Virus record (IMG/VR): IMGVR_UViG_3300045960_000077
Span: 1-47,421 of that record
Length of the DNA: 47,421 nucleotides
Origin: a virus
Taxonomy: Duplodnaviria; Heunggongvirae; Uroviricota; Caudoviricetes
Reading direction: 5' to 3' (one strand)
Each line of letters opens with the position of its first letter. Position 1 is the first letter of the stretch. A model generated the notes under the pieces. It saw only the letters and a program-made list of their open reading frames with translations, was not told where the DNA came from and did not search any database. Of the stretch, positions 21,009 to 44,127 are shown in pieces. A program made the position numbers and the translations under genes.

Positions 21009-21641
21009 TTATACATCGATATTTTGCCAAAAATCATTGCCGCACGATTTTAAGAAAATATTATTTATTGGGCCGTATATTTCATTCCACGTCTCTGGAT
21101 ATCTGAATCTCACGATCAAATGAACGTGAAATACATCATTCGGGAAAAACTCGGCATCTGGCGAAAATCTATCCGTATTAATATCCAAATCGGGCATGTC
21201 ATCATGATTCACTGAATATTGTTCGAGAATAAATCTCACAAATGTACCGAGAATACGTATTAAAAGTATCTGCTTACCAAGAATGTTTATTGAATAAACA
21301 CCTTGCATAATGTTTCCAAACTCGTCAGTTTCGACGCCGTCATCCATCGTTTCACTTCCCATCACATCGCCGATGGGTTTATTTGATTCAATCTGCGTTT
21401 CTTGATCCATGACGCAGACAATTACGGGAAGCATCGTTGAAATTGTGGAATATGTCGTGTGATATTGTATCTTTTCGTTTAATATGACATCTTTGAAAGC
21501 ATTTCGTTCCTCATCGCTTAAGTCCATCTTGTCAAAGAGGTATTTAAAAGTCTGATCGAACGAACTACCCAACGAGCTCAACGCAGTGAACGCCGACTGT
21601 ATGATGCGTAGTATTTTATATTCATTAAAAGGCAGAGACAT
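21009..21641 (-). CDS. Tail completion / sheath terminator protein
   Basis: 210 aa immediately upstream of the sheath; TAATG-coupled to the 1011 aa gene. Confidence 0.6.
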   Translation of the reverse strand: MSLPFNEYKILRIIQSAFTALSSLGSSFDQTFKYLFDKMDLSDEERNAFKDVILNEKIQYHTTYSTISTMLPVIVCVMDQETQIESNKPIGDVMGSETMDDGVETDEFGNIMQGVYSINILGKQILLIRILGTFVRFILEQYSVNHDDMPDLDINTDRFSPDAEFFPNDVFHVHLIVRFRYPETWNEIYGPINNIFLKSCGNDFWQNIDV

Positions 21642-24600
21642 TATTCAGCTCCGTTATCGTCGTCCTCATCCTTTGATAAATCCTGAACTTCACCACCCGG
21701 ACCTACAGGCATCACTTTTGCGCCCTTAGTGATATAGGGAGAATCAGTTTGCCAAGTATTTACGACATCCTGCATAGATTTCTTGGCTAATTTGAGATTA
21801 TGCTGCCACACTTCTTCGGTTAGCCCTTCATTAAAGTCGTCTCTTTGTTTCTCATCTTTATTCTTAAAGTGAAATTTCTCGGCAACACGTTTTGATTGTT
21901 CGTGTTTCTTGGGATTATTACTTACATATCCTCTGCCCACTGCGTGGCCCGTAGTCTTGCCCGAGAAACCCTTATGAAGATCAGCAGTACGTTCGTCAAG
22001 AGATTTTGGAGCAAGTTTTTCTCTTAAAGAAGCCTCTTTTTTATAAGCCTCTTCTCTACCAGGTTCGGCTGCTGTTATACCAGGATTCTTGTCTCTAATT
22101 GCTTTGCTTTGCTTATAATCTGCCTCAGCTTTATGATCATAATCTTCGCCAGTTTGTTTTATCGACTCTTTCTTATATCCTTCACGAAGATCTTTATTTA
22201 AATCTGAATCAAGAGATTTCTGAGTTTTGTCTTCGGCGGTCCAACGACGGCCGCCATCTTTGATTGCCGAGTTTTTAGTCCCAACTTGAGATTTCTTTTC
22301 ATCGGCATCCATCTTTCGTTCTTTTTCTCTCTCGATCCCAGCATCAGGATCTTGACTTGATCCACCTCTACGATAACCTGATTTACGAGGACCATAATCG
22401 ACATTCAATGCCTTCACTAAATCAACTGTTCTCTCATCAATAGACTTTTTAGCATCTGCTGCATCGGCCTCTTCATACATCTTTTTAATCCGTATATTTG
22501 ATAGATGTTTATTGTGCGATATTCTATCGCCCTTTAGCTTTCCACCTTCGTCAATACCAAAATGAGATTCTAGTTCTTTCAAATCATCCATGTCTTCATT
22601 AGATGGTTGAAAATTATGAGAGTCTTCAGATTTTTCAGCTCTAATCTTAGCAGCCTGGCCATGTAATCCACCCATTTCAGCCTGTGTCAAGGCTTTCTTT
22701 CGAGATCCTTCAATGATTTCTTTCTTTCTGGCTTCTGAAAGTTGAGGAGTAGAGACCTTACCGTGATGCTTAGGATTTTTATGAGTTCCTTGAACATGGA
22801 TCTTACCCTTTCTAGTTCCAGGACCAAACATAGCCTTTTCCATAAGAGCATCGATAGATTTTATCAAATTATTGCTCTCTTCATCGACAGATAAACCAAA
22901 CCATGTATTTTTTGAATTCACTGGAGGGTTAGCCTCTCTTTCGGCTCTCTTCTTCAATCCTTCATTCATTTTCTTCTTCTTACTTTCTTTATACTCCGAA
23001 ATAATCCTTTTTCCCTCATCAGTATGAGGATTTTTAGGAGCAGTAGTACTACTATAATATTTTGCTTTTTCTTTCTCTCTTTTAGATTCTCTAGCTTTAA
23101 TTCCGCCAGTTCGGCTGTATGATTGATGTTTTTGCTTTGGTGTAAGATGTTCTTGAGCATCTTTTTCATAATCAGAGTGATTTTTAGGAGCAGTAGTCTC
23201 ACTATAATATTTTGTTTTTTCTTTTTTAGATTCTCTAGCTTTAATTCCACCAGCTCGGCCAGACGATTGATGTTTTTGCTCTGGCGTAAGATGTTGTTGA
23301 GAATCTTTTTCATAATCTGTAGATTCATCAGCATGATGTCGTTTATCGATAAATGTATATCCCATTCGTTTTGCTGAAACTTCTTTAAGTAAAAGATCGA
23401 TAGACTTCACAAGACTTGACTTCCAAGCACCCTCAACAGGAACCTTCACCATCTCTTTATTTTCTGTCTGAAGAGGAGTATTGCCAAATACATGGCCATT
23501 CTTTTTCTCTGGCTGTTTCTTTTCGGCTTTTCCTTCAGTCAAAACATGAGAATTGCACTTTTCAAGAAGAGCATCAATGGACGTGATTAAAGATTTCTTG
23601 GTAGCAGGCTTAGGTTTACTATAATCAGCCTCGTCATCTTCACTCCAAGTAGACTTTGGTTCCGTCTTTCTACGATGCTCTTCTACGTCTGCATAATGAG
23701 AAGCAGCGTCAGAATCATCTTTAGACTTACCCATTTCAGCTCGTTTCTTAGACTCTGCAGCTATTTCTGCTTGACGAATTGCTCTAGCTGCTTGATCCCT
23801 AAGACTTTCAGCTTCTTTGTGAGTTTCTCTTTTCACCATTGCTTCTCGGACTTTTGGATGAGTAGACCCTGATTTCTCTAGATCTGATTCTTCAGACTTT
23901 TCAGTCTTATGTTTAGATCGATAAGGCCAACTAGGCATAGGACCAGGATCAGCGGCACCTCCTGCGCCAGGACGAGATGCAGGAATTTTCGGATGTTTTT
24001 CATTCCATTCATCTTCTTCAATCTTATGATCACGAGAACTGTCTTCTTTCCAAGACTTATCCATTGACTTCCCCTGGGATTCTAATTTCTTTGCAGCATT
24101 TTCATCTGCTGTTCTAACAGCTGTTTCGCGCTTAGTGACAGGGACGTCTTCATCGTTATCGATTCGACGTTTATCTAAATTCCTAAGATAACTTTCTACC
24201 TTGGGATATGATTTAGCTTTATTGAGAAGCTCGTCTATAGCGACTCGTAGAGAAGCATTTTTGAGATCATTTTCACTCGTTATAGAAATTTCTTTACTTC
24301 CTTTTGTACCGTAACCAACATGCATTTTTTCTTCATAGGGATCATATAAAGATGTTGAATGAATTTTCTTCTTTTTTCCTTTTCCCTCGGTAACAACAGT
24401 GTGACCGCCACCAGAATGAGAATGTTGTTCTATTGCCCTTGCGTTTATTTTATAGTCTTTGCCCGCTTTTTCAATATCGAAGTCGACTTGAGATTTCTTA
24501 TTTCGACGATTATAATCAGCAATTCTAGATCGATTAACTTCATTATTATTTTCCCACTCGCTAGAATTATCAGCATGATTTGTTCTAAGTGGCGGAGCAC

Positions 24601-24676
24601 GATGAATAGCCTCGTGCACAGCTCGCTTATTAGAATCGTTGTAAACCTCGTCTGACTTGTCTTTTTTAGTTATCAT
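21641..24676 (-). CDS. Giant charged modular protein; putative internal head polyprotein
   Basis: 1011 aa, K/E/D/H/S-rich, almost no hydrophobic core; recurrent KS...D-L-x-K linkers. Confidence 0.6.
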   Translation of the reverse strand: MITKKDKSDEVYNDSNKRAVHEAIHRAPPLRTNHADNSSEWENNNEVNRSRIADYNRRNKKSQVDFDIEKAGKDYKINARAIEQHSHSGGGHTVVTEGKGKKKKIHSTSLYDPYEEKMHVGYGTKGSKEISITSENDLKNASLRVAIDELLNKAKSYPKVESYLRNLDKRRIDNDEDVPVTKRETAVRTADENAAKKLESQGKSMDKSWKEDSSRDHKIEEDEWNEKHPKIPASRPGAGGAADPGPMPSWPYRSKHKTEKSEESDLEKSGSTHPKVREAMVKRETHKEAESLRDQAARAIRQAEIAAESKKRAEMGKSKDDSDAASHYADVEEHRRKTEPKSTWSEDDEADYSKPKPATKKSLITSIDALLEKCNSHVLTEGKAEKKQPEKKNGHVFGNTPLQTENKEMVKVPVEGAWKSSLVKSIDLLLKEVSAKRMGYTFIDKRHHADESTDYEKDSQQHLTPEQKHQSSGRAGGIKARESKKEKTKYYSETTAPKNHSDYEKDAQEHLTPKQKHQSYSRTGGIKARESKREKEKAKYYSSTTAPKNPHTDEGKRIISEYKESKKKKMNEGLKKRAEREANPPVNSKNTWFGLSVDEESNNLIKSIDALMEKAMFGPGTRKGKIHVQGTHKNPKHHGKVSTPQLSEARKKEIIEGSRKKALTQAEMGGLHGQAAKIRAEKSEDSHNFQPSNEDMDDLKELESHFGIDEGGKLKGDRISHNKHLSNIRIKKMYEEADAADAKKSIDERTVDLVKALNVDYGPRKSGYRRGGSSQDPDAGIEREKERKMDADEKKSQVGTKNSAIKDGGRRWTAEDKTQKSLDSDLNKDLREGYKKESIKQTGEDYDHKAEADYKQSKAIRDKNPGITAAEPGREEAYKKEASLREKLAPKSLDERTADLHKGFSGKTTGHAVGRGYVSNNPKKHEQSKRVAEKFHFKNKDEKQRDDFNEGLTEEVWQHNLKLAKKSMQDVVNTWQTDSPYITKGAKVMPVGPGGEVQDLSKDEDDDNGAE
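23031..23317 (-). repeat. Intragenic tandem duplication of about 48 codons
   Basis: DYEKDSQQHLTPEQKHQSSGRAGGIKARESKKEKTKYYSETTAPKN / DYEKDAQEHLTPKQKHQSYSRTGGIKARESKREKEKAKYYSSTTAPKN. Confidence 0.9.
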
Positions 24677-24950
24677 GTCTCTTCATCCCTGCCTCTGCAG
24701 CCTTCCTATCATGAGGATCTTTGCTTTCGGCTAGTTTCTTAAGATTTCTCTTTGAGCCTTCACTTGTACGTTCATAGTGCTCAGCTTCAGTCGGACCAGG
24801 ATTGCTCATAGTCTGAACGTGCTTTGAATCTGGAACTACAAGTTCACCTTCTGGAAGCTCAGCTTTCTTCTTGCCACCTTGTGCCTTGTTCTTACCGGGT
24901 CGACCTTTTTCTAGCTCAGTGTTTTTTTTTCGAGGATGGCGTCGAGTGCC
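24666..24950 (-). CDS. Hidden -1 frame extension (85 aa) of the 561 aa protein
   Basis: Open frame NTELEKGRPGKNKAQGGKKK...AGMKRHDN*, entered at the A9 run 24922-24930; its stop overlaps the ATG of the next gene. Confidence 0.7.
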   Translation of the reverse strand, partial: GTRRHPRKKNTELEKGRPGKNKAQGGKKKAELPEGELVVPDSKHVQTMSNPGPTEAEHYERTSEGSKRNLKKLAESKDPHDRKAAEAGMKRHDN

Positions 24951-26596
24951 TTATGAAGGTCGAAATCACCTTCAGAGGCATTCTTCAGCTTCTTCTGATT
25001 TTCCTCTGAGTTTCCTGTATCAAGCTTTCGTTCTTTCCATTCGGCAGTCTTGTCACCCTTTGGACGTGAACGAACTGTCACTTCTCCCTTTTCAGGTTCG
25101 TGACGATATCGTTTATCTTCCTTTGACTTTGGATGTTCAAATCGGCTTTCTGGCTTATCACTATAACTGATCTGCGTAGCCTTACCACCCGAGACCTTCT
25201 TGGAAACCGATGGTGAGCCCTTCTCGAGAAGGCCCATGTTTTCTAGAACTGATTTTGAGAAGTCCAACGAATAAGATTTATCTTTCATGTGCTCTTCCTT
25301 TTCCTTTTCGGGTGATTTTGCCCATTCGGCTCTTTCTTCTTTTTGACCGCCTTCGCCCTTTTCTAGGTCGAAGTCATCTTCTGATTTTTCAGCAGCCCCT
25401 GTTCCTAATCTATTCTTCAAAGCTTTGAGAGCTTCGGGATTCACTTTGCGATTAGTGAGAGGATTTTCTTTCTTTGGATTATTCTTTGAAGCAAGTGCTC
25501 CAGGTTCAGTATACTTTGAGTTAATGACTGCCTTGATAACAGTCTCAAGTCTTTCAGGACCCATAGTCTTGAGCAAATGACCAAGAGTTAGCTCATCTTC
25601 TGTCCATGACTTCTTGCTGACAAGAACATCACCATCATCATCTTCACCATCGGCACCGACTAATCCATCTTCAAACTCTTCTGGTTCATTATCAGTGAAG
25701 TTGTCAGACTTTTCAACATCATCTTCGCTGTCATCTTCTGATTTCTCAAGATCTGCATCACCTTCTGACTTCTGTTGTGATTCCTTCTTTGTGGCAGTTC
25801 CAGGATGATCTCCACCCTTATCGCCGTCGTGAACTGTGGCTGGTCGAGCTACAGCAGCATGTCCTTCGCCACCAATAGTATCCTCGGAGCCATCTTGAAA
25901 TTCTTCACCAGACTCATTCTTCTTAGACTTGTTGAGCTCATCTAAAATCTCTTGAGCTTGTGGATGGCCCTTGAGAAGTTGAGCCGTTGTAATTTCATCA
26001 ATCGTATAAGATCGTTTCATTTCTCTACCTCGAGGATTTGGATATTTCTTCTTCATTTCTTGCTGATGTTCATATTTTTCAACTTTATCGGGATCTTTAG
26101 TGTTTTCTAGAGTTTTAGGGTAAGGATGAGGATCAACCTGCTCATCTTTCTCTCGGCTCTTGAATAATTCAGGCATAGCCTTTCTATTTTCAAAAGATTT
26201 ATTTAAAAAAGAATCCATAGAAGCATTCTTTAATTCAGTTTCATGTTCGGCATTAGCAGGAATACGTTTATGTTGATATTCACCTGCACGTCTTACTCGA
26301 ATATCACCCTTTTCTTTGTCGAGCTCATAAGAATCAGCATGAACATTTGTTACTTTATCTTGATGTTTACCGCCGACATCATAATCATGTTCTTTCGTAT
26401 GCCAACGAACACTTGTAGGCTTTTTACTTCTATGTCCGTATTGCATAACTTCTTCTTTAGGAGCATCTAAATCATGATGCGTATCTTTAGCCCTTCCAAG
26501 CTTTACACGCTCAGGATTAGTAACTTTAAACTGAGTCTCTGATTTTCTTCCCTTTTCAAGCCCCATATTAGCTAATACTGATTTACTATATTCCAT
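24911..26596 (-). CDS. Charged modular protein; putative internal head polyprotein (about 643 aa if frameshifted)
   Basis: 561 aa; repeated SKSVL.NMGL(L)EKG...LKNAS modules; contains a segment shared with the scaffold. Confidence 0.6.
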   Translation of the reverse strand: MEYSKSVLANMGLEKGRKSETQFKVTNPERVKLGRAKDTHHDLDAPKEEVMQYGHRSKKPTSVRWHTKEHDYDVGGKHQDKVTNVHADSYELDKEKGDIRVRRAGEYQHKRIPANAEHETELKNASMDSFLNKSFENRKAMPELFKSREKDEQVDPHPYPKTLENTKDPDKVEKYEHQQEMKKKYPNPRGREMKRSYTIDEITTAQLLKGHPQAQEILDELNKSKKNESGEEFQDGSEDTIGGEGHAAVARPATVHDGDKGGDHPGTATKKESQQKSEGDADLEKSEDDSEDDVEKSDNFTDNEPEEFEDGLVGADGEDDDGDVLVSKKSWTEDELTLGHLLKTMGPERLETVIKAVINSKYTEPGALASKNNPKKENPLTNRKVNPEALKALKNRLGTGAAEKSEDDFDLEKGEGGQKEERAEWAKSPEKEKEEHMKDKSYSLDFSKSVLENMGLLEKGSPSVSKKVSGGKATQISYSDKPESRFEHPKSKEDKRYRHEPEKGEVTVRSRPKGDKTAEWKERKLDTGNSEENQKKLKNASEGDFDLHKALDAILEKKTLS

Positions 26597-26609
26597 CTTT
26601 TATCTCCAA

Positions 26610-27389
26610 TTAGCCGAATAAATAACTATCCGGGATTTCAAGTTTTGCCGTAAAGAGCCTTGGTAGATCTTCAAAAGCCTGTTCTCCACCCTGAGAAGGA
26701 GGTTTTCCTGCTACTGTACCTCTAATTTCATGAGCAGCAGTGATTACAATATAGCTAGGGAAGAAGGTATAAAGGGCACTAAATCCCACTCCCGAAGGAG
26801 GCCTACATTTCCCTTCATTCCACACTAATAATCCGCTGTCATTCGAATCTACATCTCTGTCTTCAACATTAAGATTTCGACAATCGTACGATGTACCATT
26901 TTGATCTAAAACCTGCATTAGTTCGACAATGGGAAACGTAAATTTATACGTCTCTTTCGTAGGATCATATATCTTAGCTTCACTTCTAAATGTGACAGAC
27001 TCCTTAAAAATCATACGATCACGAATATTTACTTTGTATTCTGGTTCACATGTTAAATTAACAAAGATGTTGCTCATAATACCTGGTTGAGCCACTCTAT
27101 ACGTTAATGTCTGCTCTTCTCTTCTATTCGAAGAAGGGACGGCTCTTATTTCTTTTGTAAATACATAAGTCCATCCAGTACCGTTGCAAAGACCGCATGC
27201 TAATTGCCTGAACTTTAGATCGTTCTGTTGCGGTGCTAAAGTACAAGGGCAAACTAATGCTTGCCACCAGTCATACCTTGAGCCATATTGCTGTATTAAT
27301 CCAATTGCCGCCTGAGTATTATAATCGATTTTAATCGGATTGAAATGGACTCTAGCAGCTCCCTTTGGAGTTCCTCTATTAAGAGCCAT
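26610..27389 (-). CDS. Neck / head-closure protein (SPO1/Twort-like, Cys cluster)
   Basis: WWQALVCPC...CGLCNGTGW motif typical of Herelleviridae-type neck proteins. Confidence 0.7.
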   Translation of the reverse strand: MALNRGTPKGAARVHFNPIKIDYNTQAAIGLIQQYGSRYDWWQALVCPCTLAPQQNDLKFRQLACGLCNGTGWTYVFTKEIRAVPSSNRREEQTLTYRVAQPGIMSNIFVNLTCEPEYKVNIRDRMIFKESVTFRSEAKIYDPTKETYKFTFPIVELMQVLDQNGTSYDCRNLNVEDRDVDSNDSGLLVWNEGKCRPPSGVGFSALYTFFPSYIVITAAHEIRGTVAGKPPSQGGEQAFEDLPRLFTAKLEIPDSYLFG

Positions 27390-28138
27390 TACGCACCTAC
27401 GAGTTGCAGACCGTAATAATATTGACGGAGAGTTTTGACAATTTCTGTCATTTCTCTTTCCATTTGTCTAATACGACCTCCATATGCAGCGTTTTCAGCC
27501 GATGCCGTCGTGCTGACCGACTGTGAGAGTCCATCAATTCCAATAGAATAGCCTGCCAAAGCAGCCTGACCGCCCAAAGCAATTTCACCAAGAACATTTA
27601 ATACTCCAGTTGTAGCATTCATGGCGATAAGCTGTGCAAGCAAATCAGGAACATCCTCATTCTCGCCGTACCCTGCTTCATATGAAACTCGTAAAATCTG
27701 CGGAACATACGTTGTTGCAGAAAGTAATGGCATGAACATTAAAATTTGATTACCGATATTCGAACTTGCTAAAATTCCATAATATGGAATCAAATTTACC
27801 TGTGCTGATTTCTTTTTAAGTTGAATCCATTCACTGGGAATCCTAATGACTGATGTAATAACGTTCAATGACATTTCAGTAACTTGGATTGCTGGTCTAG
27901 TATTGAGCTGAATATATCCGAATCCCGACATCCATTCTTCAAGCCTATAATCATAAGACTCATTCTCAATAGTCTTTGGGCGTATTGAGATATTTAAGAG
28001 CATTTCTGCTCTACTTATTGCAGAATCAATATAGAACTGAATAGCTTCATCTGTTAGTTTGTCATCGTCGAATTCAATGGGAATTCTCCAAAGCCAAACT
28101 TCTTTAAGCCAATCAGGAGTAAGATCTTTTATCTTCAT
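27389..28138 (-). CDS. Head-tail adaptor / neck protein
   Basis: IDSAISRAE..LNI.I, YEAGY...VP, SIGIDGLSQSVSTTASAENAAYGGRI motifs. Confidence 0.75.
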   Translation of the reverse strand: MKIKDLTPDWLKEVWLWRIPIEFDDDKLTDEAIQFYIDSAISRAEMLLNISIRPKTIENESYDYRLEEWMSGFGYIQLNTRPAIQVTEMSLNVITSVIRIPSEWIQLKKKSAQVNLIPYYGILASSNIGNQILMFMPLLSATTYVPQILRVSYEAGYGENEDVPDLLAQLIAMNATTGVLNVLGEIALGGQAALAGYSIGIDGLSQSVSTTASAENAAYGGRIRQMEREMTEIVKTLRQYYYGLQLVGA

Positions 28139-29496: not shown

Positions 29497-29540
29497 ATCG
29501 ATACCCTCCTAGGGATACAAAATATTGATAGAGAAAATTA

Positions 29541-29560
29541 AGTGGGCCCGAAGGCCCACT
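29541..29560 (-). terminator. Intrinsic terminator/hairpin with C(UUCG)G tetraloop
   Basis: Minus strand AGTGGGCC-TTCG-GGCCCACT followed by TAATTTTCT. Confidence 0.75.
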
Positions 29561-29565
29561 CTTTA

Positions 29566-30180: not shown

Positions 30181-31623
30181 TTAATACTTTACGTTAATGA
30201 CTCTCGTCCACTTCAAAGGGGCAAAGAGAACGGGGACACCGTAGAGCAGGATCATCCACTTGTAAGCAGGAGCGATCGTTGCTAGATCCATCTTGACCAG
30301 CGGAGCCAACTGACGGAACGTGAGTACGTCAGGGGTCATCTGACCGATGAAGCATGTATAAGTATTAGGCATACGAACGCCTGAATAATCATATGCAGCA
30401 TCAGCTGTTGCAGCAAGAGGAATCGTCTGTACCCAATATTGCGTACCAGCAGCATCATCAACTTCGGTGATGAAGATGTCCATGAACTGAGCAGTATTAG
30501 CGTTTGAATCAACACCCGACACTGTAAAGCGAAGAGTATTAGATCCCGATGTTGTTACCGTACCACCAGCGCATGTCTTAGCAATTGTTTCTCCCCACTT
30601 ATTTCTAAGTGTGAAAGAAGCAGCATAGTCACCGGCGGCGACTGAATATCCTGAAGTAGGAGAACCAGCAGCGGTCATGGTAACAGTTACTGAACCAAGA
30701 GGCATTTCATCAGACTTGAGAAGAGTTGCTGCTGTAGGAGCTACTCTTGTCTTGTTCAAGAAGAAGGTTGGCTTTAGGTTAACTCGACCAGCCTGAGTCA
30801 TAAGACCGTCGATGTTGATGTTGACCTGAGTGTTACCAGATGCTGTTGGGAGAATTACTCTCTGTGCAGCAGTTCCAGCGAACTCTTCGTTGATCTTTGC
30901 AAGAACAGGGAATGGAAGATAAATATCAGTTGGGAAACCGAAGTTATCAACAACAGTCTGAGCTAGATCATTGACGATTGTGGTGAAAGGAGTTGAGGAG
31001 AAAGTAGTTCCACGAAGATCGTAGGTATTACCTGCACCAGTTCCGCCAGTAGAAGGACCGTCGCCAAGAAGCTTGTCAAGGCCTGCCCATTCAACATACT
31101 CTGTGGCATTTCGTCCCTTGTCATTTCCCCAGAAGAGGGAATTTTCAATCTGGCGAAGCATCCACATGATTCCGTTTGAGTTTTCCTGAGCGATAACGTC
31201 AGGAACCATCGTACGAACCAAGGTTAGAGGGTGGGAGACTGATCTGGTTGTACCAACGAACTTAACCAATGCGGCTCGTCTTGCGTAGTCGGAATTTGTC
31301 TGATAAGGTAGTTCACCTTCAGTCAAGAACCCACCGGCCTGAGTGCCGTAAGAGGTTAGCTGGTTGAATTCTTCAACCGTTGAATAAGCAGGTGACTTCG
31401 GAATATCTTTCCAGAAGTTGATGTGCTTATCTGTGAATGTGATAACCTTAAGTGAACTGTCCAGAGATTCAACTCTTAGGGACTGAGCACCCGTGGTACC
31501 ATAGTTTGAGCTACCAAAGGCTGCGCCGGCGGATAGACCATTGTCTGTTACGCCTTCGAGGGCTTTATTAAGAGCCGCGACATCCTGTAGGTCGCCGATT
31601 CCAAAACCTTGTACATCGTTCAT
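30181..31623 (-). CDS. Major capsid protein (SPO1/Twort-like, HK97 fold)
   Basis: SLRVESLDSSLKVITF...FWKDIPKSPAYSTVEEF, IE...FWG, LAPLVKMDLA...LLYG motifs; putative cleavage at ALNKA. Confidence 0.95.
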   Translation of the reverse strand: MNDVQGFGIGDLQDVAALNKALEGVTDNGLSAGAAFGSSNYGTTGAQSLRVESLDSSLKVITFTDKHINFWKDIPKSPAYSTVEEFNQLTSYGTQAGGFLTEGELPYQTNSDYARRAALVKFVGTTRSVSHPLTLVRTMVPDVIAQENSNGIMWMLRQIENSLFWGNDKGRNATEYVEWAGLDKLLGDGPSTGGTGAGNTYDLRGTTFSSTPFTTIVNDLAQTVVDNFGFPTDIYLPFPVLAKINEEFAGTAAQRVILPTASGNTQVNINIDGLMTQAGRVNLKPTFFLNKTRVAPTAATLLKSDEMPLGSVTVTMTAAGSPTSGYSVAAGDYAASFTLRNKWGETIAKTCAGGTVTTSGSNTLRFTVSGVDSNANTAQFMDIFITEVDDAAGTQYWVQTIPLAATADAAYDYSGVRMPNTYTCFIGQMTPDVLTFRQLAPLVKMDLATIAPAYKWMILLYGVPVLFAPLKWTRVINVKY

Positions 31624-32669: not shown

Positions 32670-33623
32670 TTACTGTAAGACATTAGAATCTTTAATAATT
32701 CTTACAAAATTATCGATTCCGTCAGCTCTATAAACGAGACCTACGATTTCTTCTAGCAGGACATCACTAGCCTTAGGATGTACTGTCTTGAGAAGTGTGA
32801 TTAACTCTTTGTGGGATTTTTGTGCTGTGCGAAAATTAGCATGTAGACGTGATTCTAATTCTTCTTCTGAACTTTGTCTGTTTCCTACTACTGCGTTGTT
32901 TTTAATAGCATTTGTGTTAGCGCCTTCAAGATCTTCCGTCCTAAGTGATTCATGACCCGTATAATTGCTACTACCAAATGAATGACCTGCAACTGCTCCA
33001 ACTTCTGCAATTGCTGCCAAATCTTTCTTGAGTGAAAGGTCTTTCATTATGTAGGAGACGATTTCGTCATAGGCAGGAGGAACGAAGGATTTTGAAACTG
33101 CTTCGAATGTAGCTTCAGTATTCACCGGGATATGTGTGACAGCAACGTTCGTTACTTTTGCTTTCACGATTTTTGACTTGTTGATCGCCGACCGGGCTAC
33201 GATTTTTCCTTCAATAGAATATCCTAATCTGCGAGGATGTCCTAATGATTTCAATTCAGTAGCTAGATTCCAAACATGGGTAGCCATCTCATTGTTAAAG
33301 AGCATTCCCTTTGTGAAGAAGCCGATGTGGTCGATTTTTGAGTAGACAGGAATTCCAATTACGTGGTTGGGTGAGTTGTTGTGCATCCAATTGAGCCAGC
33401 CCTGGTTGACATAATAGGATATGTCTAAACCCGATTTGATGATGCTTTCACCATCAGAATCCCAGGCTGGAGTTGAGGCATAACCTTGAATAAATCTCCC
33501 GGTTGCCTTAGTGGCATCAAAATTTTGATTTTGAAATTCCGCTTTATTCAGCTCGCCTTCGACAAACTCGATATTATCAGTATAAAACTGAAATATATCG
33601 TCGAAAGTTTTCGGATCTGTCAT
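32670..33623 (-). CDS. Prohead maturation protease
   Basis: IQGYASTPAWDSDGESI, LNWMH, GYSIEG, VAVTHIPVN motifs. Confidence 0.9.
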   Translation of the reverse strand: MTDPKTFDDIFQFYTDNIEFVEGELNKAEFQNQNFDATKATGRFIQGYASTPAWDSDGESIIKSGLDISYYVNQGWLNWMHNNSPNHVIGIPVYSKIDHIGFFTKGMLFNNEMATHVWNLATELKSLGHPRRLGYSIEGKIVARSAINKSKIVKAKVTNVAVTHIPVNTEATFEAVSKSFVPPAYDEIVSYIMKDLSLKKDLAAIAEVGAVAGHSFGSSNYTGHESLRTEDLEGANTNAIKNNAVVGNRQSSEEELESRLHANFRTAQKSHKELITLLKTVHPKASDVLLEEIVGLVYRADGIDNFVRIIKDSNVLQ

Positions 33624-41997: not shown

Positions 41998-42976
41998 TAT
42001 TCTCGTATGTGATGGCTCCAACCTATTCGTTAGAGCCTTCTTCTCAATGACAGATGCAATGCTTCAGAACTCTAAGAGTCAAGACACTACAGCAATCTAT
42101 GTATTCCTCCAGCATCTCCGGAAGCTAATCGATACTGAAAAGCCTGAAGAATGCTATATTATCTTTGACTTTGGCCGAGATGTTCGTAAGAAAGGGCTGT
42201 ACAAGGACTACAAGGCCAACCGTAATATTGACCTTGGTGCTCTTGCTGGATACGATCTGACGGTCAAGATGAATGAGATAGAGAGTAGAAAACGTCAGAA
42301 GGCTGTCATTATCGATATTCTTAAGACTCTGCCTGTAAAGCTAGTTATCGTCAAGCAAATTGAAGGTGACTCTCTAATAGCATATGTAGCAAAGCATTTC
42401 ACTGATAGAAACAAGACCGTGACTATTGTTTCGAATGATAAAGATTTCTATCAGCTTCTAGACCATGAAAATATCAAGATCTTCAATCCTCACAAGAAAG
42501 CATATATCGCCAGATGCAATATGGACGAAGTGTTTCCAATAAAAGACTTTCCAATCAGTTGCTATAGACTTTATAAATCAATTAGAGGTGATAGTTCAGA
42601 TAATATCCCAGGCGTTAAGCTCTTTGGTGACAAGAAAATTCAAAGCATGTTTGATTTAATGAAATCTAAAAAGCCCACAAATGTAGAAGAACTCTACCAA
42701 GAATTTGAATCAAACCCCGACTTAAAAAAGAAGTACTGGAAATATTTTGAAAACAGTAGAGACCTCCTAGAACTCAATTACAAACTTGTCGATTTGATTG
42801 ATATGGATTGGTCTCCTCAGTCTTTATCACTTATTTATGCTGCAATTGAATCTCATCCTTCATTTTCAAGAATGGATTTTATGCAAATCCTTATTAGAGA
42901 AAATATTAATACTATCCTAGCAAAGGTTGATAAATTTATTGAGCCCTTCAATAAAATGTTGCCCATCAAAGCATGA
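41990..42976 (+). CDS. 5'-3' exonuclease / flap endonuclease (T4 RNase H, PolI-N family)
   Basis: DGSNL, FD, EGDSLIA, SNDKDFYQL, GDSSDNIPGV; likely start MSDILV at 41990. Confidence 0.92.
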   Translation: MSDILVCDGSNLFVRAFFSMTDAMLQNSKSQDTTAIYVFLQHLRKLIDTEKPEECYIIFDFGRDVRKKGLYKDYKANRNIDLGALAGYDLTVKMNEIESRKRQKAVIIDILKTLPVKLVIVKQIEGDSLIAYVAKHFTDRNKTVTIVSNDKDFYQLLDHENIKIFNPHKKAYIARCNMDEVFPIKDFPISCYRLYKSIRGDSSDNIPGVKLFGDKKIQSMFDLMKSKKPTNVEELYQEFESNPDLKKKYWKYFENSRDLLELNYKLVDLIDMDWSPQSLSLIYAAIESHPSFSRMDFMQILIRENINTILAKVDKFIEPFNKMLPIKA

Positions 42977-44127
42977 AAATATTATCATATGGCGACCTCC
43001 ACGCCGCCAACCTCTATAGCTTTAATGTAAAAAAGTCAAAATATCAATTTACGGAATATTCACGAATTGATGAACTTTATTCTACACTTGCGTGGATAGC
43101 AAAAGTTACAAAAGATAATAGTATAATGATGACGATAAATATGGGAGATACTTTCCATCAAGCACTTAGATTCTATGTAGAGAGATATAATACAGTCGTT
43201 AAAGCTGTCAATTCAATCAATCAAAATACTCTTTCTAAGTCTGGCGTCATTATTGAGGGCAATCATGATAGGAGTGATGATGTCTCGGCTGTTGATACAT
43301 TCGAGAACGTGCAAGGGACTGTCTTAGTAAAGAATACTATAAAAGTTAAATTCATTAGTGAAATAAACTCTCACATTATTTTTGTGCCCTATATCAGAGA
43401 TCCTGAAAAGACCAGGGAAGCATTTCAATCTTTACATGAAAAATACAAAAATAGTCGGACTGACGTGTATGTATTCTGCCATCTAGATATAAAAGAAGCA
43501 TATGAGGGACTTATTTCTTCAACGTATCAACTTGGTCAGTTCAATACATATGCTGACCTTGGACTTGACATATATAAAGCCGTCTTTTCGGGACATATAC
43601 ATTTCAAGAAGCAAATCAATAACAACTTCTATTACATTGGTTCTGCATTAAATCATAATTTTGGTGACTCTTTAACGCGAAAGGGAGTAACGATAGTCGA
43701 TATTGAACCCGGCAAATATGATATAATATACAAAGAAAATCCATATTGCCCGTTCTTTGTCAAGTTTAATCTTGAAAAACCCGACAATGTTAAGTCTAAA
43801 ATAAAGGCAATTGAAGATGAAATAAACAAGTATCCAGCCACTAATGTCTACGCCCGTATATTTTCTCTTAACACAGAACAAGGCAGAAAGAAATCTAATA
43901 ATTTCATTAGAGATCATGGTCATTTATTTACAGCTTATGAAACAAAAAATCTTGATTCTGAAGACGAGTTTAGTGAAAACGATTCAATCTCTAATACGAT
44001 GGAAAACGTTAATGTCGTCGATCTCATTATTGATCACGGCACTAAAATACTTAAGTCGCAGGGAAAGACAGAATATCAAATTGAGCAATACATAACGAGG
44101 TTTAAGCGCATATGTCTGTTAAACTAG
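42973..44127 (+). CDS. Mre11/SbcD-like nuclease (T4 gp47-like)
   Basis: GDLH, GDTFH, GNHD, CHLD, FSGHIH, YIGS motifs. Confidence 0.92.
   Translation: MKILSYGDLHAANLYSFNVKKSKYQFTEYSRIDELYSTLAWIAKVTKDNSIMMTINMGDTFHQALRFYVERYNTVVKAVNSINQNTLSKSGVIIEGNHDRSDDVSAVDTFENVQGTVLVKNTIKVKFISEINSHIIFVPYIRDPEKTREAFQSLHEKYKNSRTDVYVFCHLDIKEAYEGLISSTYQLGQFNTYADLGLDIYKAVFSGHIHFKKQINNNFYYIGSALNHNFGDSLTRKGVTIVDIEPGKYDIIYKENPYCPFFVKFNLEKPDNVKSKIKAIEDEINKYPATNVYARIFSLNTEQGRKKSNNFIRDHGHLFTAYETKNLDSEDEFSENDSISNTMENVNVVDLIIDHGTKILKSQGKTEYQIEQYITRFKRICLLN

Follow-up and report, generated by a model that had tools for sequence, protein, structure and literature searches.

The DNA analysed here, hereafter the window, comprises 47,421 nucleotides (nt), the first 47 kb of the 111-kb IMG/VR viral contig IMGVR_UViG_3300045960_000077, which stems from an uncultured phage (Caudoviricetes) in a sediment metagenome and is estimated to be 68% complete. 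Its structural module is that of an SPO1-like myovirus: genes for a prohead protease, a scaffold and the major capsid protein (MCP) on the minus strand are followed by small open reading frames (ORFs), by homologues of the adaptor and of SPO1 gp6.4, by two large ORFs of 561 and 1011 amino acids (aa), by an orphan gene for a 210-aa protein, and then by those for the tail sheath, the tail tube and the remaining tail proteins; the plus strand carries the terminase and the portal (Table 1). The subject of this study is the pair of large ORFs, which we refer to as B-type (561 aa) and A-type (1011 aa) and which we describe as candidate polyproteins of the phage prohead.

Both proteins look like strings of small modules joined by short linkers that end in a recurring motif around a lysine, with the strict form [LIVM]-x-K-[ASG] and the relaxed form [LIVMF]-x-K-[ASG]; in the following, an arrow marks the bond after this lysine. 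The 561-aa protein has a 15-aa N-terminal leader ending in LEK15↓G, an optional module (B01) and a conserved core (B02-B07), with strict sites at K15, K133, K146, K209, K223, K285, K296, K355, K413, K459 and K549. The 1011-aa protein has two additional N-terminal modules ahead of a typical A-type protein and a conserved C-terminal tail beyond ITK984↓G; its strict sites lie at K70, K153, K207, K268, K317, K424, K606, K614, K755, K902 and K984. The original prediction for this locus had counted at least 10 strict sites in each protein, which these two sets of 11 bear out, and had described linkers of the form KS-x(n)-D/L-x-K. All the strings that it quoted are found in the two translations, but one of them, IDALLEK↓C, has a cysteine rather than Ala, Ser or Gly after its lysine. 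In the 1011-aa protein (residues 373-379; window ~23540-23560), this linker is followed by the cysteine and then by N-S-H-V-L, and the relatives have a conserved K-C-H-S/T-H-V-L at the same position; the cysteine may be a non-canonical P1' residue or part of a small metal-binding element.

Two further features of the proteins concern their internal relationships. Residues 461-505 and 509-556 of the 1011-aa protein are copies with 73% protein identity, encoded by a tandem duplication, which shows that the modules are still multiplying. Residues ~228-310 of the 561-aa protein are paralogous to residues 74-140 of the scaffold, that is, to the N-terminal extension of the scaffold and not to its gp3.3-like part.

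The modules had been characterized as basic, and this agrees with the isoelectric point (pI) of the whole 1011-aa protein (9.1) but not with that of the 561-aa protein (5.65), whose centre is strongly acidic, so that charge is mixed overall. Likewise, the proposal of 20 or more small basic peptides holds in part: if cuts are placed at the relaxed motif, 9 of the 12 pieces of the 1011-aa protein have a pI > 8, and a mildly basic pI (8-10) prevails in this protein; of the pieces of the 561-aa protein, half are acidic, and the predicted pieces of both proteins range in size from 8 to 182 aa. In AlphaFold 2 (AF2) models calculated with family alignments, the 561-aa protein is mostly disordered (mean predicted local distance difference test, pLDDT, 49), with short helices whose ends coincide with the sites and a single beta module (465-526; pLDDT ~80), and residues 590-1011 of the A-type protein are likewise largely disordered, with isolated helices (mean pLDDT 55). 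A fold search with the 561-aa model against 48,161 chains (VIA-align) aligned only this beta module (460-536), with generic beta-sheet matches (Z under 7) that assign it no particular fold. Neither protein belongs to a Pfam, PHROG or NCBIfam family, and no enzymatic or known effector domain and no peptidase was detected in them; the ESM Atlas gave no usable match to the 1011-aa protein, and megablast and tblastn searches with both proteins against 50,697 phage records returned no match.

The lysine motif is more frequent than composition would predict. We compared the strict sites of each protein with the mean of 5000 composition-preserving shuffles of that protein, and found 11 against 2.27 in the 561-aa protein (P < 2e-4) and 11 against 4.63 in the 1011-aa protein (P = 0.006), in which the narrower form D-[LIVMF]-x-K-[ASG] occurs four times against 0.39 expected (P = 0.001). 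The scaffold (11 against 1.40; P < 2e-4) and the prohead protease (5 against 1.19; P = 0.006; K27, K63, K149, K154 and K178) are enriched as well. Ranked by enrichment, the scaffold, the 561-aa ORF, the protease and the 1011-aa ORF lead the 135 ORFs of the contig; a comparison with non-head proteins had been suggested in the original prediction. The remaining 129 ORFs contain 105 sites against 93.9 expected, and all tail proteins are at expectation. Summed over the 59 proteins of the two families described below, 503 relaxed sites are observed where 150 are expected. The same signal emerges when the surroundings of every lysine are profiled without presupposing the motif: leucine is enriched 5-fold at P3 (among lysines followed by Ala, Ser or Gly) and aspartate 2.9-fold at P4, with Glu at P2, Phe or Met at P5 and Ser, Ala or Gly at P1', and this profile is identical across the A family, the B family and the scaffolds of the clade. 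We also considered a 384-aa ORF (42973-44127) with 5 sites against 1.3 expected; it encodes an SbcD-like nuclease, its sites lack the acidic context, and we attribute its count to chance.

What, then, is this motif? It lies near the N-terminus of four head proteins of the window, as had been noted before: AALNK20↓ALE in the MCP, DLEK36↓AQ in the portal, LINK14↓AQ in the scaffold and ELNK27↓AE in the protease. The capsid protein of phage 812 is represented in the PDB by its full 463 residues (5lii) and also by a 439-residue chain (9row, 9rox and 9roz), which corresponds exactly to residues 25-463 and starts with SFQTGYG after EDVVK24. This boundary aligns with DALNK23↓ALE in SPO1 gp6.1 (PDB 9vel) and with the site in the MCP of the window, and the A511/P100-type phage P200 has EDALK24↓SFTTGYG. 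In cultured relatives, scaffold and protease are again rich in sites, with observed and expected numbers of 11/1.2 and 8/1.3 in SPO1, 14/1.4 and 9/1.0 in YungSlug, and 7/1.2 and 5/1.3 in phage 812; across the SPO1 genome, none of the other ORFs (170 in total) is as enriched as these two. Because of the 812 chain start, the aligned sites in SPO1 and the window, and the enrichment in scaffold and protease, we regard hydrophobic-x-Lys↓Ser/Ala/Gly as the site at which the SPO1/Twort-type prohead protease cuts. The earlier claim that SPO1/Twort-type capsid precursors are cleaved at such a site thus agrees with the 812 chain boundary and the P200 sequence, but we found no stated cleavage site for the capsid proteins of SPO1, A511 or 812 in the literature searched. 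The next most enriched SPO1 ORFs encode gp2.31 (26602-27546; 7 against 1.8) and the ParB-like gp2.12 (24642-25265; 4 against 0.9), which are candidates for unrecognized prohead-protease substrates in a cultured phage.

Relatives of the 561-aa protein number 38 among 5.8 billion proteins; all are metagenomic, and none has a Pfam domain. For the 1011-aa protein, we found 21 relatives among 1.84 billion representatives, each matched in several separate stretches. In seven distinct related viral contigs, which we analysed in detail, the flanking genes are colinear with those of the window (54-90% identity). The gp6.4 homologue forms a conserved upstream border (63-89% identity) and the 210-aa gene a conserved downstream border (54-77%) of a variable slot, which holds two to four genes for proteins of 195-1011 aa. 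These are 30-60% alike and rearranged, whereas the true scaffold is colinear at 45-79%. Within the families, the site lysines stand out from the other lysines, with a conservation of 0.78 versus 0.38 in the B family (P = 0.0003) and 0.83 versus 0.33 in the A family (P = 0.003). The invariant alignment columns are largely linker blocks, namely LLK↓G, DLEK↓S, DLEK↓G and DLHK↓A, and further ID-x-LL-x-K↓A, KS-L/I-DERT-x-DL-x-K and ITK↓G. At the DNA level, the linkers are not frozen: a 17-nt stretch for A-E-K-S-E is the only linker piece conserved in DNA. This A/T-E-K-S-E element recurs with 82-94% DNA identity; the copies at 22623-22639, 23889-23905 and 25377-25393, which are distributed over both genes, show 88-94%.

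Gain, loss and movement of modules between linkers, as originally predicted, can be seen in these relatives. The module at residues 16-133 of the 561-aa protein is missing in most of them, internal in P0005 and P0025, present in A-type proteins and found twice in P0039; the B-type protein P0020 contains the module at residues 756-902 of the 1011-aa protein. The leaders behave in a corresponding manner. Stand-alone A-type genes start with M-D/E-R/K-Q/S-I-I-D-x-L-L-x-K↓A, a leader of 12-13 aa, and this same leader is found inside the 1011-aa protein at 146-153, where the module that follows is also the same, and a second time at 607-614. The beginning of stand-alone B-type genes, MENRR-x-x-P-x-L-F, follows LNK133↓S in the window, and the leader of the 561-aa protein (1-15) is repeated at 445-459, where it precedes a module related to the first (34% over 61 aa). 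Since the leaders double as internal linkers, cuts at the sites would set free the very products for which relatives have separate genes with leaders. We consider this correspondence the strongest comparative argument that the proteins are polyproteins, and it fits a role of the leaders as address and cut site in one.

One further module appears to be hidden between the two ORFs, which are separated by an apparent gap of 235 nt. The original prediction had missed it. Close to its end, the 561-aa ORF contains a run of nine A residues (A9), and a −1 shift at this run leads into a module that lacks its own start codon (Bext). The frame of this module recreates an L-E-K↓G site immediately after the shift and runs four codons into the 1011-aa ORF; the long form would have 643 aa. 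The block ATCCTCG-A9-C, the early stop in the zero frame and the start-less −1 ORF are kept in five contigs (four distinct sequences), among which the flanks of the block differ at many positions. Elsewhere, Bext is fused in frame (P0020, which thus combines it with the 1011-aa module mentioned above), forms the C-terminus of P0038, P0039 and P0050, or is an ATG-started gene (L014). The site therefore has the slippery heptamer, the start-less downstream −1 ORF and the conservation looked for in programmed shifts. A stimulatory RNA structure was not apparent downstream of the run: the minimum free energy of 92 nt was no better than that of shuffled sequences (z = 0.67). Long A runs can slip in transcription too. 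It could be argued that the gene is in fact continuous and that the run and the gap stem from a fault in assembly or sequencing, given that homopolymer runs are error-prone and that Bext is fused in frame in P0020. Four other metagenome samples, however, yielded contigs with the A9 block, the zero-frame stop and the −1 ORF, which makes such a fault very improbable; a programmed −1 shift, whether ribosomal or transcriptional, is far likelier.

Taken together, these observations lead us to a reading to which we assign a probability of roughly 60%: both ORFs encode polyproteins of the prohead core that are cut by the SPO1-type protease, which makes them an analogue of the T4 internal proteins with lysine sites and with many sites per protein. 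They would be precursors of the prohead interior, chains of small, mostly disordered or helical and highly charged modules, each placed behind a short amphipathic leader with a protease site at its end, for which the consensus is (F/M/A)-D-L-E-K↓S/A/G. Produced late, alongside the neck and tail genes, the polyproteins would be carried into the scaffold core of the prohead by these leaders and, in case of the 561-aa protein, also by its scaffold-like segment. The activated protease, which would also cut the scaffold, the capsid protein, the portal and itself, would then divide each polyprotein into about a dozen pieces, and the A9 run would let a share of ribosomes or transcripts shift into the −1 frame and append one module to the 561-aa protein. 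For the least certain step, we guess that the bigger modules, which are rich in lysine, remain on the DNA as T4 internal proteins do, whereas the short acidic leaders are lost. Packaging and cleavage, like what becomes of the pieces, are inferred steps. The location of both genes where the head and neck block ends, without a terminator ahead of the sheath gene, also speaks for our reading.

Several points weigh against this reading. Both genes adjoin tail genes and do not lie between those of the protease and the capsid protein. Cultured SPO1, YungSlug and 812 have no counterpart of the two proteins and no giant genes between the neck genes and the sheath, and therefore the system must be dispensable for SPO1-type head assembly. 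The protease cut in 812 is itself read from deposited chain boundaries. Finally, the enrichment in the 1011-aa protein is only 2.4-fold; with Glu substituted for Lys, the control motif [LIVM]-x-E-[ASG] reaches the same enrichment there (9 against 3.4), so some of its sites may just reflect amphipathic helices; in the 561-aa protein, the control motif is absent (0 against 2.2). In an alternative reading, neither protein is a protease substrate; both would belong to the neck, to the tail or outside the virion and be disordered and charged, such as whisker- or fibre-like proteins or late proteins that interact with the host, and D-L-x-K-[ASG] would be a helix-capping or binding motif in them, inherited by duplication. 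Besides the control motif and the location between neck genes and tail sheath, this would account for the AF2 models, where the motif sits at the ends of predicted amphipathic helices, and for the many sites in duplicated linkers, which are not independent events. It does not explain, however, why the same P4-P1' profile recurs in the scaffold, the protease and the leaders of MCP and portal, why the other ORFs of the contig, all tail proteins included, are at expectation, why the site lysines are the most conserved residues, or why gene boundaries in relatives fall at linkers. We regard this possibility as distinctly unlikely.

If the proteins are substrates, they might still serve as auxiliary scaffold or core filler, which would be cut by the protease and leave in its entirety before or during packaging, with no later role. 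Herelleviridae scaffolds (SPO1 gp3.3, 812 gp93 and the 322-aa scaffold of the window) indeed have the same motif at a density comparable to that of the 561-aa protein, part of which is paralogous to the scaffold, and both the AF2 models, with predominant disorder and no confident globular domain but one small beta module, and the lack of detectable enzymatic or effector domains would suit a filler. On the other hand, neither protein has the C-terminal domain that true scaffolds share with SPO1 gp3.3, and their genes occupy another genome position, after the neck genes rather than between protease and MCP. The two proteins are also two to three times larger, variable and mosaic, and the slot diverges and rearranges far more than the true scaffold. 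Its changing number of genes makes for a pattern that suits host-facing cargo better than an assembly part. Moreover, several of the predicted pieces are lysine-rich and, with 80-180 aa, comparable in size to the retained T4 internal proteins. On balance, a mere filler seems unlikely to us.

The variability of the slot favours cargo, and the lack of a folded effector domain favours filler. Within the polyprotein reading, we can go one step further, albeit tentatively, and imagine the slot as a hypervariable cargo locus. Its small, shuffled, lysine-rich proteins, once freed by the protease, would be injected along with the DNA and act against defences or in takeover; the leader-linkers would be address tag, cut site and in-frame recombination joint at once, and the −1 shift would set the dose of the extra module. 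We see this as possible rather than probable.

Among known systems, the closest likeness is found in phage T4, whose internal proteins IPI, IPII and IPIII and the Alt protein (protease gp21) have a short N-terminal leader that ends in a head-protease site. The T4 internal proteins are lysine-rich, loaded in the scaffold core and cut there; at their polymorphic, hypervariable locus, only this leader, a capsid targeting sequence, is conserved ahead of otherwise diverse proteins (PMC3012670). In the present families, such a leader is represented by the 15 residues up to LEK15↓G in the 561-aa protein and by the 12-13-aa leader ending in LL-x-K↓A in A-type relatives. There are clear differences, though: the site is hydrophobic-x-Lys↓Ser/Ala/Gly rather than L/I-x-Glu, the protease belongs to the SPO1/Twort type (phrog_1028), and each gene has about a dozen sites, with many modules strung together and leaders reused as internal linkers. 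Nor do the proteins belong to the T4 internal protein family, to which they have neither a Pfam or PHROG match nor sequence similarity, and their P1 residue is lysine.

In the giant phages phiKZ, 201phi2-1 and SPN3US, many head proteins other than those of the shell carry propeptides, which are removed by the prohead protease at S/A/G-x-E; some substrates are cut at more than one site, and ejected proteins are among them (PMC10052503). The 14 sites of SPN3US are, however, spread over 9 substrates, compared with at least 11 predicted sites in a single protein here, and these head proteins differ in P1 residue and phage lineage and are not homologous to ours. Polyvalent proteins (Iyer et al., 2017; PMC5512222) are likewise large multi-module proteins, encoded beside virion genes and predicted to be packaged into the head and processed. 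They have recognizable enzymatic or effector domains, though, and often a metallopeptidase of their own, none of which we found in the two proteins, and processing here would be performed by the prohead protease; as no known domains were found in Pfam, PHROGs and NCBIfam, the two proteins fall outside the definition of this class. We found no description of polyprotein arrays in SPO1-like phages in the literature searched.

If our reading is true, an uncultured clade of SPO1-like phages has a capsid cargo system that resembles the T4 internal proteins but is built from polyproteins, and its cargo is read by a different protease code, Leu-x-Lys↓Ser/Ala/Gly. Should the slot moreover be a cargo locus, it would represent the first internal-protein or cargo system in the SPO1-like lineage, with cargo that can be predicted from sequence. 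The code appears to have predictive value, given that its top hits in both SPO1 and the present genome include scaffold and protease, and it could be used to find unrecognized head-internal proteins in the Herelleviridae, a family with applications in phage therapy. Moreover, it can be seen at this locus how cargo may be assembled and reshuffled: one module can stand alone as a gene, sit inside a larger gene or lie behind a frameshift.

The features discussed above and their surroundings are listed in Table 1.

Table 1. Location of the two polyprotein ORFs, their internal features and neighbouring structural genes; positions are those of the window.
Feature	Position	Strand	Remarks
210-aa protein	21009..21641	-	no family; directly upstream of tail sheath gene
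A-type polyprotein ORF, 1011 aa (P0001)	21641..24676	-	21 relatives; alignment A2
Tandem duplication in 1011-aa ORF, ~144-150 nt (48 aa)	23029..23317	-	87-91% DNA identity
Bext, 85-aa module	24666..24923	-	−1 frame; lacks its own start codon
B-type polyprotein ORF, 561 aa (P0002)	24911..26596	-	38 homologues; alignment A1
A9 run, A_AAA_AAA in zero frame GAA AAA AAA	24922..24930	-	three codons before stop of 561-aa ORF
259-aa neck/head-completion protein	26610..27389	-	SPO1 gp6.4 homologue; phrog_1004; 26% identity over 258 aa
Adaptor homologue	27389-28138	-	SPO1 gp6.3 / phage 812 gp96
Major capsid protein, 480 aa	30181..31623	-	phrog_752; 37-42% identity to Spounavirinae MCPs
Scaffold, 322 aa	31651..32619	-	11 sites; residues 137-321 resemble SPO1 scaffold gp3.3
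Prohead protease, 317 aa	32670..33623	-	phrog_1028, E = 1e-52
Portal, 576 aa	36781..38511	+	phrog_12 and PF04860

The 317-aa prohead protease, the presumed processing enzyme of the two polyproteins, is 46% identical to SPO1 gp3.2 and 36% to the protease of phage 812; a sequence search of the PDB with it gave no match. For the 210-aa protein, we found no family in Pfam, PHROGs or NCBIfam and no tblastn match among cultured phages. Because no tail terminator of the phage 812 gp99 / SPO1 gp7.2 type is recognizable within the window, the 210-aa gene may be the one at the tail-terminator position. The only strong transcription terminator of the region lies downstream of the capsid gene (29540-29561), and none is found between the neck genes and the sheath. 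It is a bidirectional, GC-rich hairpin and separates the head genes from a neck-to-tail operon that includes both polyprotein genes.

Lastly, protease residues 197-233 (window 32925-33035) approximate a copy of residues 17-55 in the N-terminal arm of the MCP (window 31459-31575), over ~40 residues with ~48% identity, and the matched part of the MCP lies just after its maturation site. The same pairing of protease and MCP arm occurs in SPO1 and YungSlug (protease ...K↓SLEAGY..., MCP ...K↓ALEAGH...), and this copy may serve the docking of the protease inside the shell.

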